Source of the DNA: Escherichia coli
GTDB lineage: Bacteria > Pseudomonadota > Gammaproteobacteria > Enterobacterales > Enterobacteriaceae
Strand: one strand, 5' to 3'
DNA length: 64,000 bases
Assembly: GCF_036507355.1 (NCBI RefSeq)
Contig: NZ_AP027877.1
Shown here: piece by piece, positions 37,401 through 43,400 of the stretch
Layout: each line of letters opens with the position of its first letter
Position numbering within the stretch: the stretch's first letter is position 1
Program-made: the position numbers

Positions 37401-40400
37401 CTGACTGTTCTTTATTAGCGGAAGAATCCGGACCGTACTTCTTTATCCAGGCGTAAAGGCTGTGGGTGGTGATATCGAGACGTGTTGCAACGCTGGCAAC
37501 AGAATAACCGCGATCAACAACCTGTTTGACTGCTTCAATTTTAAACTCTTCGGGATAACGCTTACCGCTCATGGGCACCTCTCTTTAAGCCATCTTAAAT
37601 GACTCTGAGGTGTCTGTTAAACCCGTGGCGATTCAGGAAGAGTTCGAAATACGCAGCGAAATTGTTGGAATTCAAATTAGTTGATCTTGACGTTCTTAAG
37701 CGAACATACTTCTTTTTTGCAGACCGTTATCTGGCAGATGTAGTGAAGTTTGAAAACCTATGTGGTGATTTAGAGCATACATCGCAGAAGGCTAGGGATG
37801 AAAAAATTAAGGCCATGCAATTAAAGACAAACGACCCTGAAATTCAGTTAGGTGTTTGTATTTTTGTTTGTTTCAGGTTGCGAAACAACCTTTTTCATGG
37901 ACCAAAATGGCGTTATTTGCTTGATGGGCAAGAGGATTTGCTCTTAATTGCCGGAAATTTTATACATTCTATTCTATTACAGGTGCCTAGTAGAGATGGC
38001 TGGGAATTCAAGAATATTTTAACTTCTACTGATTAGCTTTGATTTTCCATAATCAACCCGCCATAATCATGTCATCGGAGCCTGAACAACTCCGGTGACT
38101 TCTGCGCTTTGAGGGGACTCAAAGTGCAAACGACAATCAGAACACCTTTCAACCAGTCACAGATGCAGAAATGCACCTGCAATATCTTGCATCCAACGTT
38201 TGACCTCTGCGGAGGTGAAGCGTGAACCTCCCACAAGACGGCATCAAATTACATCGCGGTAACTTCACTGCTATCGGTCAGCAGATCCAGCCTTATCTGG
38301 AGGAAGGCAAATGCTTTCGCATGGTGCTTAAACCGTGGCGGGAGAGACGCAGTCTTTCCCAGAATGCACTCAGCCACATGTGGTACAGCGAAATCAGTGA
38401 ATACCTCATCAGCAGGGGTAAAACGTTCGCCACTCCAGATTGGGTAAAAGATGCTCTCAAACACACTTATCTCGGTTATGAAACCAAAGAACTGGTTGAT
38501 GTCGTAACCGGTGAGATCACCACTATCCAGTCGTTACGCCATACCTCCGATCTTGATACCGGAGAGATGTATATCTTCCTGTGTAAGGTTGAAGCCTGGG
38601 CGGTGAATATTGACTGCCACCTGACTATTCCGCAGAGCTGCGAGTTCCAGCTGCTGCGCGACAAGCAGGAGGCGTAATGGCTACACCGCTTATTCGTGTC
38701 ATGAACGGACACATCTACAAAGTACCAAATCGTCGTAAGCGTAACCCTGAGCTGAAGCCATCCGAAATACCAACTCTGCTCGGATATACCGCCAGCCTGG
38801 TTGATAAAAAATGGTTGCGACTGGCAGCAAGGAGGAATCATGGCTGATTTGAGAAAAGCAGCGCGTGGTCGGGAATGCCAGGTAAGAATCCCTGGCGTAT
38901 GTAATAGCAATTCTGAAACGTCTGTACTGGCACATATCCGGCTGGCTGGATTGTGCGGTACCGGTATCAAACCGCCAGACCTGATTGCCACCATCGCATG
39001 TTCTGCCTATCACGACGAAATCGACCGCCGCACACATTTTGTCGATGCTGAGTATGCAAAAGAATGCGCGCTGGAAGGTATGGCGAGAACACAGGTTATC
39101 TGGCTGAAAGAGGGGGTTATTAAGGCGTGAATACTTACAGCATCACATTACCCTGGCCTCCGAGCAATAATCGCTATTACCGCCATAATCGCGGGCGCAC
39201 GCACATCAGCGCAGAGGGGCAGGCATACCGCGATAACGTCGCCCGAATCATTAAAAACGCAATGCTGGATATCGGCCTGGCTATTCCTGTGAAAATCCGC
39301 ATTGAGTGTCACATGCCGGATCGCCGTCGCCGTGACCTGGATAATCTGCAAAAAGCTGCTTTTGACGCACTTACCAAAGCAGGTTTCTGGCTGGATGATG
39401 CTCAGGTCGTTGATTACCGCGTTGTGAAGATGCCGGTTGTCAAAGGTGGAAAGCTGGAACTGACCATCACTGAACTGGGAGATGAATGATGTTTGAGTTT
39501 TATACGGCAGAACTTCTTCGCCACCGCTGGATGCGCCTGCGCTTATATCGTTTCCCCGGTTCTGTTTTGACCGATTACCGAATACTGAGGAATTACGCCA
39601 AAACCCTGACAGGAGCAGGAGTATGAAGTCAGAGATAACAATCAACTAATACTGTTTTGTTGATTTTTGCTTGTAATTGGCGTTCTGGTCTGATTTTTGT
39701 GGAGTAAGTTGATGCGTGATATTCAGATGGTTCTTGAGCGTTGGGGAGCGTGGGCGGCTAATAATCATGAAGATGTGACCTGGTCGTCCATTGCCGCCGG
39801 TTTTAAGGGATTAATTCCTTCAAAAGTAAAATCTCGCCCACAATGTTGTGACGATGACGCGATGATCATTTGCGGGTGCATGGCCCGTCTGAAAAAGAAC
39901 AACAGCGATTTGCATGATTTATTGGTGGACTATTATGTCGGCGGCATGACTTTTATGGCGCTTGCACGTAAGCATGGGCGATCTGATTGTTGGGTTGGCA
40001 GGATGCTCCAGAAAGCTGAGGGCGTAGTGGAGGGTATGCTGATGGTGTTGGATCTCCGATTGGAGATGGATGCTGATTGTTCGAAATAATTAAAGGAAAA
40101 GTTGCTGTCTGATTGTCATTAGTCTAACATTTTAAATGTTGGAATCGCAACGTAGTTATTATCATATAACAGCTTGTTTCCTGATTTAGCCAGCCTCCCC
40201 AAAGGCTGGTTTTTTTCTAATAAGTATTATTTCGGGTAGGGATTTTATTGTTTAACCCATAATAATTCATTGACATTGAATCCCAACTTTTGAGCGGTTC
40301 GCACATAGTCTGCTTTTACTTTATCTGGAATAGTTGGGGTCCTTGCCAGAATCCATAGGTATTCTCTGTTCGGACCACTGACAAGAGCATACTTATACTC

Positions 40401-43400
40401 ATCATCCAGTTTGATTACATTATAGCCACCATAGAAGGGGCCAAAAAACGAAACCTTCAATGCTGCAGTTTTAGTATCTCCAGTAAAGTATGCTTTACCT
40501 TCGCTCTCGCTCCATTTATTTTTCGTTGGATCGTATCCACGGTTAAGTACACGAATCCCTCCGTCGTTCCGTTTTCCATAAGTAGCGCTGACCTGTTCCA
40601 GATCACGTTCGAACCGGTTCTCGAGGCGAGCTATTTCATACCATTTTCCGAGGTAGCGGTTGGCGTCAAAATTTGTAATCGGCTGCACACCTTTAGGTGG
40701 TGTCGGGGCCTTACATGCTATAAGAGTGAAAGAGAGTGCAATGCCAGTCAACACAGGCCATAACTTCATAATAAATCCTGTACTTTTGATAGTTGAGAGT
40801 AAGTATGAAAGATAGATGATTACGACCGATCACTTAAAGAACTTTCATACTATATTAGGAATAGTCCATAACAGAAAAATTGTCAGTGATGACGCCAGAA
40901 AGGCAATTTATTCCGTGCACTACACAGTTTATGTGTTAATGAATTAGTCAAGGGGGAGAATATGATAAAAAAACCTGTGATTGGAATCAGCGGTTGTTTG
41001 GCCGGTTCTGCTGTTCGTTTTGATGGTGGTCACAAAAGAGCTGACTTTTTAATGGACAAATTAGTGGAATGGGTAACATTCAGACCAGTATGTCCGGAAA
41101 TGGCTATAGGGCTGCCAGTTCCGCGTCCTGCTCTACGTCTTGTGCGCTCGACGCAAGGAAATATACGGATGTGTTTCAGCCACGACCAGAATGAGGATGT
41201 GACAGAGAGAATGACAGAGTTTAGTCGTTCTTATATGGACAAATTAAAGGATGTATCGGGGTTTGTGGTTTGTGCTAAATCTCCCAGCTGTGGCATGGAG
41301 CGCGTGCGTGTCTATGATGAAAATGGTAATCGAGGTCGTAAAGATGGAGTGGGACTATTTACGAGTACTTTGATGGAAAAGTTTTCCTGGCTACCGGTTG
41401 AAGAGGATGGGCGATTACATGATCCAGTGCTTCGTGAGAATTTTGTTGAAAGAGTTTTTGCTTTGCATGAGCTCAATCACCTTTACAAGGAGAAATTATC
41501 AAGAAGAGAGTTATTAGCTTTTCATAGTCGTTATAAGCTTCAGTTGTTGGCGCATAGTCAGGCAGGCTATAAAGATATGGGACCATTTGTGGCTGCAATA
41601 CACGAGTGGGCGGACCTTGAATCATACTTTGAGGTGTATCGTGATAAGCTGATGGCGATTCTCAGAAAACCTGCATCACGTAAAAATCACACGAATGTGC
41701 TGATGCATATACAGGGGTATTTTAGTAACTACTTAAGTACACGCCAGCGTAAAGAGTTGAGCGAGGTTATACTTAACTATCGTTCTGGCACATTACCTCT
41801 TCTTGCGCCGTTGACTCTGCTGAAGCATTATCTGGGTGAGTATCCTAATGATTACTTGCTTACACAGAATTACTTCGATCCCTATCCGGACGAACTGGCT
41901 CTAAGACTGATGGTAAATTAATTGTATGCGATATCATCCAAAAGGATGAGTTCCTGCATGCAGGATATTTACAATCGTAAAAACTACACTATGATACCCA
42001 GAGTGTCAGTTTGTATAAAAACTCTGTTTACGCTGAAGAAACAATTGAGATGCAACTTAAAGTTGGTAAACATGCCAGTCAAAATATATAATATTATGAT
42101 TCCACGCAGCTATATATAATATAACAGATTGGTTTAATAATTTGTCTTTGTGAGTTAAATACATAATTTTATACTTGTGATGCAATGAAATTTTCCTTAT
42201 TGTTGAACTGGCGAATATTGATTTTCCACCTATACTTACCTGGTGTAACCCCAATGATATCAGGTGGATAATATGCCATACATATGTTCTATCATTTTGG
42301 TGTTGAACTCGTTTGATGTCCGAATTGGTAAAGAAGATATTTTGTTTAAAAAAGGAAGTGCTGTTCTCATTGATTACAATTTAAAAGATTTTTTTTCATC
42401 AAATATAGATCATGTAATGATCGTAGATGTTGAAGAGAAAACAGTTAATGATTTCTTTAAAAGCAACACACTCTCACCTTTTTCTGTAAGAAGGTTTTAT
42501 CCGGCATACTTGATGGTGGAATGTGAAGATTTTTCATTGTTAAAGAACTTGATTGCATGCTTGAATTGTGATGGCAGAACTGTGGATTTTGTTAGAAATC
42601 AAATATCACTTGCATGTCTTGCTATCTTATCTTCAGAGAAAATAGTGCAAAGTTTTTTATTTGGATGTCTTAATAGTTTAGGAAGTAAAGTTAAGGCTAT
42701 TATTCACACGGATATATCTGCAGCATGGAGACTTTGTGATATATCTTCAAGACTGTATCTGAGTGAAAGTCTGTTAAAAAGAAAATTAAAGCACGAAGGC
42801 TTATCATTTAGTAAGTTAATTCTTGAAGAGCGAATGGTGATGGCGGAAAGGTTATTAAGCTACAATTTATATTCTGTTGGAAAAGTTGCTGAGATATGCG
42901 GTTATGAAAACACGTCATATTTTGTGAGTGTTTTCAGAAGATATTTTGGTGTTCCTCCCCATCAATATTCATCAAGATTTTTTTTAGAAAAAGACATGAT
43001 GTAACATGATGCGTTTTAATGATTTTGTAATTTTCGTATTTGATAATTGTATGATGCTTTCAGCTACGCCAGAATAATCGCTGGCGTTTTTCTTTTTGAA
43101 TAGATGTTCAAGCCTTACGCTAATGTAACTTCTATACCTTTCCTCTTCGTTCCGAACCGTGTACACCATCCGTTATTTGCGGAGGTGAGGCTATGAAATC
43201 TATGGATAAGTTAACAACGGGCATTGCCTACGGCACCTCCGCAGGCAGTGCTGGCTACTGGTTTTTACAGTTGCTCGATAAAGTCACGCCCTCACAGTGG
43301 GCAGCAATAGGTGTGCTGGGTAGCCTGGTATTTGGCCTGCTGACGTACCTGACAAACCTTTATTTCAAGATTAAAGAAGATAAGCGCAAGGCTGCGAGAG

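Follow-up and report, generated by a model that had tools for sequence, protein, structure and literature searches.

A lipocalin, RudS and AraC-family cargo block between the Q antiterminator and lysis genes of an Escherichia coli prophage

The window analysed here is a stretch of 64,000 nucleotides (nt) of Escherichia coli DNA (assembly GCF_036507355.1, contig NZ_AP027877.1) that contains a lambdoid prophage, and its subject is a block of three cargo genes carried between the gene for the antiterminator Q and the lysis cassette of that prophage. The open reading frames (ORFs) follow the order Q, blc, a TudS and DUF1722 fusion gene (rudS), an AraC-family gene (araC) and the holin gene essD, and all three cargo ORFs are intact (Table 1). 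A sequence-only reading of this DNA had placed a lipocalin, a TudS-like DUF523/DUF1722 fusion and an AraC regulator in this gap; the ORF map agrees with the placement, and family searches bear out the identities. The same reading called the block markedly AT-rich, which holds for araC (31.8% guanine plus cytosine, GC) and the spacers (32–39%), but blc (43.6%) and rudS (43.3%) are only mildly poorer in GC than the whole window (47.8%).

Table 1. Coordinates of the cargo block, the lysis genes and other features of the prophage in the window
Feature	Position	Strand	Remarks
Q antiterminator, QuuD/933W type	39712..40089	+	125 aa from annotated ATG; ORF opens at TTG 39697
Candidate pR' zone	40061..40172	+	consensus scan and Sp5 resemblance; three candidate sites
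Intrinsic terminator, candidate tR'	40188..40217	+	9-bp stem, 5 GC pairs, T7 tail
blc, outer-membrane lipocalin lipoprotein	40245..40769	-	174 aa; NCBIfam Blc
Divergent blc/rudS intergenic region	40770..40961		192 nt, 34% GC
rudS, TudS (DUF523) + DUF1722 fusion	40962..41921	+	319 aa; PF04463 + PF08349
AT-rich spacer with sigma-70-like sites 5' of araC	41922..42272	+	32% GC
AraC/XylS-family regulator, PatE/YdeO-like	42273 (or 42264)..43004	+	243/246 aa; HTH_18 + HTH_AraC
Second intrinsic-terminator-like site, araC–holin gap	43066..43095	+	7-bp stem, 5 GC pairs, T-rich tail
Lysis cassette (whole)	43193..44345
Holin essD	43193–43408	+	PHROG holin families; so annotated by RefSeq in strain Yu5, where the DNA is identical
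Endolysin rrrD	43408–43905	+	RefSeq annotation of identical DNA in strain Yu5
Rz	43890–44345	+
Rz1, embedded in Rz	44095–44292	+
DUF6979-family ORF	44333–44758		between lysis and packaging genes; function unknown
67-aa membrane ORF	44876–45079		between lysis and packaging genes; function unknown
HNH endonuclease gene	45076–45495		directly 5' of small terminase
P27-family small terminase	45612–46115
Large terminase	46112–47845
O-acetyltransferase / O-antigen acetylase-like gene	53196–54320	-	374 aa; PHROG 3333; adjoins integrase
Integrase	54461–55654	-
IS3-family element	36425–37578	-
orfB of IS3-family element	36425–37237	-
orfA of IS3-family element	37294–37578	-

The lipocalin matches NCBIfam model NF007786 over residues 1–174 with 314.5 bits against a cutoff of 267, and its identity to E. 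coli Blc, for which a structure (3MBT) has been solved, is 63%. A lipobox, LIAC, is found at residues 16–19, with MKLWPVLTGIALSFTLIAC/K read from the translation itself. Mathieu et al. 2020 (PMC6969025) counted blc among the morons of lambda and gave it as occurring in over half of the lambda phages from the infant gut; their paper makes no mention of rudS or of the araC gene of the block.

The middle gene encodes two Pfam domains, PF04463 (2-thiouracil desulfurase/DUF523) at residues 7–149 (E 1.6e-39) and PF08349 (DUF1722) at residues 192–309 (E 2.2e-40), which is the architecture of RudS, a family of TudS-DUF1722 enzymes that remove 4-thiouridine (s4U) from tRNA (Jamontas et al. 2024, PMC11417400). 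The enzyme studied there as RudS_vir is gp66 of phage 1H12 (NC_049947, H3V29_gp66), an orthologue from the same block that is 93.4% identical to the window protein. Cysteines 12, 44 and 110, given for RudS_vir in Table 1 of that study as ligands of a [4Fe-4S] cluster, are present in the window protein in addition to Cys 71 and Cys 104, and the two domains, the three cluster cysteines and the length of 319 aa are common to the window protein, RudS_vir and Salmonella ORF319/STM1389 (PMC11417400). All RudS variants tested lowered s4U in tRNA, and RudS_vir gave the shortest lag on 4-thiouracil (PMC11417400). Judged by these domains and residues, the product of the middle gene is RudS, a predicted tRNA s4U desulfidase.

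The third protein possesses a double helix-turn-helix, with HTH_18 at residues 161–237 (E 2e-14) and HTH_AraC (E 5e-7), and its best NCBIfam model is YdeO, matched over the full length with a score under the cutoff. It is 54% identical over 235 aa (E 2e-88) to PatE of strain Sakai (ECs_0287 = Z0321). When O157 genomes are searched by blastn with the window araC gene, the patE locus is the sole detectable relative, so O157 is without this block, and among characterised relatives PatE comes closest. PatE, PsrA and PsrB are prophage AraC-like regulators of O157:H7 that activate the gadE/hdeAB acid-resistance genes and reduce LEE (locus of enterocyte effacement) expression, and for PatE and PsrB activation of gadE/hdeAB together with higher acid resistance is known (PMC10877973). 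The window protein resembles this group in being prophage-borne, about 245 aa long and AT-rich, and its homology to PatE extends over the full length; YdeO is another gadE activator. It differs from PatE in allele and in position, patE being located near the end of the Sp1 remnant. By analogy, the window protein probably activates acid-resistance genes as PatE does, and a PatE-like regulator in about 1000 commensal, extraintestinal pathogenic and animal isolates could then modulate the glutamate decarboxylase acid-resistance network outside enterohaemorrhagic E. coli. Directly left of the prophage lie evgS, evgA, emrK and emrY (27883–35212), about 7 kb from this YdeO/PatE-like regulator. EvgAS heads the EvgA-YdeO-GadE acid-resistance cascade, and its proximity to the prophage regulator is probably coincidental, arising from attachment at argW.

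The protein encoded upstream of the cargo belongs to PHROG 79, ‘anti-termination protein Q-like’ (E 1e-51), and over 120 aa its identity is 88% with K-12 QuuD and 83% with Q of the Stx2 (Shiga toxin 2) phage P8983, of the 933W type; the structure of Q21 (6P18) is matched only distantly (E 2e-8). Between Q and blc, terminator prediction finds the hairpin of Table 1, and positions 40100–40217 align with the 3' part of the pR'-tR' interval of Stx2 phages at 65% identity over 125 columns, with a local score of 58 compared with 26.8 +/- 4.9 (maximum 48) in shuffles. The homology thus covers the terminator and ~115 nt 5' of it. In Sakai, this interval yields the small RNA StxS, whose start and end have been mapped by differential RNA sequencing (dRNA-seq) and Term-seq (PMC7547250). 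After the published Sp5 coordinates were shifted by +142 for the offset between record versions, the published pR' start lies 7 nt past a TATCAT hexamer, and the 3' end given by the mapping coincides with the final T of the homologous terminator.

There are three candidates for the pR' of the window, all of them upstream of the cargo. Two emerge from a consensus scan, TGGAGA-18-AATAAT (40061–40090) and TTGCTG-17-TAACAT (40102–40130), and the third has the -10 hexamer TATCAT (40160–40165) with a start near 40171/40172. The window sequence TATCAT-ATAACAG (40160–40172) resembles the TATCAT-G-ATAAGAG of Sakai Sp5 pR', and ATATAACAG is also retained 3' of Q in porin-type phages. On this homology the TATCAT at 40160 is favoured as the -10 element and start of pR', with the two upstream consensus matches kept as candidates. 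The sequence-only reading, which had set the two plus-strand genes downstream of a candidate pR' and terminator, is thereby strengthened, the terminator being homologous to a mapped Stx-phage tR' and Q closely related to an Stx2-phage Q. The RNA of 40137–40218 is predicted to fold at -24 kcal/mol (z = -3.75), and a search of the leader RNA against Rfam gave no family at threshold, the sole weak match being the terminator hairpin. From the leader at 40137–40217, an RNA that resembles StxS and binds Hfq may be produced in prophages of this type other than Stx prophages.

The 13-nt motif TATNATATAACAG occurs exactly twice in the window (40160–40172 and 42115–42127), where 0.22 copies are expected and 3 of 100 shuffles reach two. 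Each copy lies in a spacer of the block, on the plus strand, one at the candidate pR' and the other ~150 nt 5' of araC, and ~45 nt around them are similar. A second pR'-like element 5' of araC, in which TATAATATAACAG at 42115 would match TATCATATAACAG at 40160, is not claimed to be functional; the 42115 copy is absent from the 1H12 allele and, for that reason, may be a scar left by recombination and not a site with a function.

The arrangement is common. Among 5426 complete E. coli genomes, with presence defined as at least 80% coverage, the stretch from Q to essD is found in 979 and the cargo alone in 999, while any part of the cargo occurs in 1151. The block is also present in 12 phage records, of which IdasGreatGrand, a swamp-mud phage with a complete genome on deposit, is 98.6% identical, and 1H12, Lambda_2E9, Lambda_ev087 and others are ~90% identical. 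The source of the Lambda_ev* and 1H12 records is a survey in which temperate phages that E. coli strains produced were brought into culture (PMC6969025). Because the Q-to-essD stretch recurs in so many genomes and phage records, the arrangement is not a chance juxtaposition. The cargo of the window is 100% identical to copies in fuller prophages. The modules upstream of Q vary, with ybcN-ninE-rusA-ylcG in the window and strain Yu5, and KilA-N/DUF968 in strain WP8 and Qin-like prophages.

It has been stated that E. coli has no TudS/RudS homologues (PMC11417400). This is true of K-12 and of only some strains, as 999–1151 of the 5426 genomes (18–21%) carry prophage rudS, with two main araC allele groups (>=99% and ~87–89% identity). 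The level of s4U in tRNA and the response to near-ultraviolet (near-UV) light may therefore differ between E. coli strains owing to a prophage.

The gap between Q and the holin is a genuine cargo hot spot, as the sequence-only reading had supposed. A tally of its occupants, made for this block and for the NmpC/OmpD-type porin, finds the porin between the same Q and holin in K-12 DLP12, in many phages and in 2465 of the 5426 genomes, so that the block is a frequent occupant and the porin a commoner one. The DLP12 porin moron has a Q 88% identical to that of the window, the same essD-rrrD flanks and the identical gap, and its gene, like blc, is on the opposite strand; it differs in that the cargo is unrelated and the sequence just 3' of Q is different save for short motifs. 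When cargo types are compared, only ~25 nt at the ribosome-binding site are similar 5' of essD.

The block could be carried neutrally with the Q-lysis module and be of no use to phage or host, and this fits the frequent truncations and insertion sequence (IS) insertions, with IS1, IS2, IS3 and IS5 variants of the block found. Copies without araC or part of rudS are IS-mediated deletions and are still located directly behind Q, and derivatives of E. coli B carry Q, blc and a truncated rudS::IS3 in a Qin-like prophage (C43(DE3), NZ_CP011938.1, 1584116–1591979). However, the three intact ORFs are under purifying selection, since the ratio of nonsynonymous to synonymous substitution rates (dN/dS) between the window allele and that of phage 1H12 is 0.07 for blc, 0.10 for rudS and 0.27 for araC. 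Moreover, the block is conserved in about 1000 genomes in at least two divergent alleles, and the RudS of 1H12 is biochemically active (PMC11417400). Neutral hitch-hiking is thus highly improbable. A consequence of the rudS::IS3 copies is that laboratory strains of the B/BL21 lineage have an extra blc with a dead rudS.

As for origin, chromosomal relatives were sought in one genome per species, and rudS was found at 41 loci in the Enterobacterales, encoding proteins 66–76% identical to the window RudS. At 21 of the 41 loci, a blc homologue (Blc 68–81% identical; 78–81% in Enterobacter and Leclercia) lies 5' of rudS and on the other strand, which is also the arrangement of the block. In Citrobacter sedlakii, between a BCCT transporter gene and rluF-panS-lysC, and in Citrobacter JGM124, blc directly adjoins rudS, and in Enterobacter, Leclercia and Lelliottia a MerR/MlrA-like regulator gene and an HIU-hydrolase-like gene stand between the two. 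These loci differ from the block in their core-chromosome setting, and none of the 41 contains a homologue of the AraC gene, Q or the holin. The sequence-only reading had named, as something that would refute it, the three genes as ordinary chromosomal neighbours outside prophages; among these loci the pair occurs in this way and the trio does not, which goes half of the way to such a refutation. The block is, on this comparative evidence, a mosaic in which the blc-rudS pair and araC are of separate origin. The lower GC of araC (32% versus 43–44%) and its greater divergence between alleles (83% protein identity between the window and 1H12, against 93–97% for RudS and Blc) also suggest that it was acquired separately.

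A recent chromosomal donor of the pair was looked for, and none was found: DNA identity is only 65–75% and does not extend beyond coding sequence, the spacers being unrelated, including those of Citrobacter when compared with 40770–40961. Either the capture is old or the donor is unsampled. Bacterial rudS genes usually belong to light-responsive operons with photolyase or LitR/MerR regulators (PMC11417400). The phage copy, in contrast, has no regulator gene of the light or MerR type, lies in a late operon and, in its blc-rudS spacer, is without the MerR-type gene of the Enterobacter loci; it has lost the MerR-type regulator found with chromosomal rudS. Salmonella ORF319/ORF242 of pathogenicity island 2, considered as an instance of the same rudS-AraC pair, was ruled out because the Salmonella gene is under a MerR-family regulator (PMC11417400), and the Enterobacter loci likewise have MerR/MlrA-like rather than AraC regulators.

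A further alternative is a self-contained, regulated three-gene unit in which the AraC protein would stand in for the missing MerR-type regulator and control the divergent promoters of blc and rudS, rather than host genes in the manner of PatE. AraC-family regulators often sit beside their targets, the trio is nearly always together (araC or the full cargo in 995–999 genomes, against 1151 with any part), and the chromosomal spacers show no relation to the one between phage blc and rudS. Yet araC differs from its neighbours in GC and in allele identity, as described above, which points to a separate origin. Relatives of the AraC protein at 52–54% identity also occur elsewhere in phages and prophages that have neither blc nor rudS (PatE in Sp1, mEp332, PhiR70_1 and ev099), and no repeated operator-like motif is common to the spacers, other than a single 13-nt motif, which the 1H12 allele does not have. 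Control of blc and rudS by the AraC protein is accordingly quite improbable.

The prophage of the window (35213–55854) is a decayed remnant at the argW site, tRNA-Arg(CCU) (55780–55854, minus strand). It lacks cro, N, O, P and a repressor gene, as well as its immunity, replication and early regions and most of its morphogenesis genes. Because these parts are missing, Q cannot be induced in cis in the window, and expression there would be either autonomous, the more relevant of the two routes, or driven by the Q of another prophage. The location of the block in a late operon is supported by the 83% identity between Q and Stx2-phage Q and by the homology of tR' to the mapped Stx tR' (PMC7547250). 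Plus-strand terminators are predicted at 40188 and 43066 only, with none between.

On balance, we consider it likely that the block is a mosaic moron cassette in the cargo slot of the lambdoid late operon, expressed autonomously in the lysogen and also transcribed late in intact relatives. In the lysogen, the genes would most likely be expressed on their own and alter host physiology, Blc as an outer-membrane lipid-binding lipoprotein and RudS by stripping near-UV-sensitive s4U from tRNA. In intact relatives in which Q is made, polymerase starting at pR' would pass tR', blc (antisense), rudS, araC and the second terminator into the lysis and head genes; since the late transcript must cross the block, rudS and araC would then also be late transcripts, as stx is. 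With regard to the own promoter, terminator and atypical composition of a moron, araC has two candidate promoter-like sites, of a kind no more frequent than in shuffled sequence, the predicted terminator at 43066–43095 and a GC fraction of 0.32 against 0.48. The sites are TTTACA-16-TATGAT (41968–41995) and TTGGTA-18-TATAAT (42063–42092), sigma-70-like and both 10/12, with weaker ones beside them; in the 1H12 allele, an extended -10, TGaTATAAT, is found ~90 nt 5' of araC. A consensus scan found no clear promoter for rudS or blc. The stem of the terminator-like site is kept in phages 1H12 and IdasGreatGrand, and the site may keep araC transcripts out of essD in the lysogen.

A stricter alternative is that the plus-strand genes are essentially silent in the lysogen and induced by Q in the manner of Shiga toxin, for a lytic purpose such as erasure of s4U by RudS so that tRNA damaged or sensed under UV does not throttle phage protein synthesis. 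It draws on the position of rudS and araC on the late strand, past an Stx-like tR' with no predicted terminator before 43066, behind a Q so similar to that of Stx2 phages, and on the lack in phage rudS of the MerR-type regulator that precedes chromosomal rudS. UV is, in addition, a classic inducer of lambdoid prophages. However, araC has promoter-like sites of its own, including the extended -10 of 1H12, and its own terminator, while late transcription would run against blc, which is on the other strand, rather than induce it. The block is also intact in a decayed remnant that cannot be induced. Furthermore, the characterised homologue PatE works in lysogens on host acid-resistance genes (PMC10877973), and RudS_vir was weaker in tRNA desulfidation, both in vitro and in vivo (PMC11417400). 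Exclusive control by Q is therefore rather unlikely. The suggestion of the sequence-only reading that Q could switch on the plus-strand genes at induction keeps its footing in the Stx-like placement by homology, but it does not apply in cis to the remnant of the window, and with promoter-like sites and a terminator at araC, Q need not be the main switch.

A further proposal, distinctly unlikely in our estimation, concerns phage-timed demodification of tRNA. UV damage with SOS induction would lead to late synthesis of RudS, which would erase the near-UV sensor s4U8 from host tRNA and so avert the cross-linking, uncharged-tRNA signalling and growth delay that otherwise curtail phage protein synthesis. 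In the lysogen, near-UV tolerance would result from expression at a low level, joined by tolerance of acid and of envelope stress through the linked PatE-like regulator and Blc. If it were true, the modification of host tRNA would be rewritten on a schedule set by antitermination, and about one in five E. coli strains would possess RudS activity, although the species is said to be without it.

Several points weigh against autonomous expression combined with late transcription and against the roles assigned to the genes. The promoter-like matches in the region number 13, compared with 11.3 in shuffles, which is no excess, and they serve as leads only. Three sites compete as pR', and the one favoured by homology would give a leader of only ~46 nt as opposed to 258 nt in Sp5. 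The N-terminal part of the AraC protein is only 38% identical to PatE, compared with 68% in the DNA-binding half, so that its signal and targets may differ. In addition, tRNA desulfidation by RudS_vir was weaker than that by other RudS enzymes despite good expression (PMC11417400).

Compared with known systems, the block shares with the Stx phages (933W/Sakai Sp5) the Q-lysis slot, the related Q, a homologous terminator and cargo on the late strand, but it contains neither a toxin nor tRNA genes, has blc on the opposite strand, and would have a leader of 46–120 nt by prediction, its dependence on Q being likewise predicted. It is a frequent and well-conserved combination of known parts, and not a new kind of system. 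The sequence-only reading had not recognised the combination as a described module, and in the open-access literature we found no paper on blc, rudS and araC as one module; nevertheless, the genes are known, and the block is common (~18% of the genomes) and present in published phages. It offers a harmless, very common, non-toxin model for cargo expression from own versus late promoters behind an Stx-like Q and terminator. A role in defence or anti-defence was dropped, as no PADLOC defence-system model matched any of the three cargo proteins at E <= 0.01, and orf6/orf10 of prophage phiv142-3 from avian pathogenic E. coli proved unrelated to this block.

The remainder of the prophage reflects its decay. 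At the left edge, the evgS-to-emrY genes are followed by ~200 nt of the 3' end of dsdA; collinearity with other genomes breaks at 35525, inside this dsdA fragment, and resumes at 38039, just 5' of ybcN, and the left junction is found in none of the complete genomes at at least 80% coverage. For 35600–36410 (~0.8 kb, 35–37% GC), in the gap between the dsdA fragment and the IS3-family element, no complete E. coli genome matched at useful coverage; an 87-aa membrane-protein-like ORF at 36146–36409 has no family match. An AT-rich ORF of 145 aa (37599–38036) adjoins the IS3-family element. It matches nothing in NCBIfam or PADLOC and has only a weak PHROG match of unknown function, and a similar stretch elsewhere is annotated ‘BstA C-terminal domain-containing protein’; the ORF may represent part of a prophage gene for abortive infection that the IS has cut. 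Two more deletions inside the prophage have brought capsid next to sheath (~50135) and tube next to tail fibre (~51102–51114). The acetyltransferase gene beside the integrase is a second likely lysogenic-conversion gene of the remnant, and the order of HNH, small terminase and large terminase is the usual HK97-like packaging arrangement.

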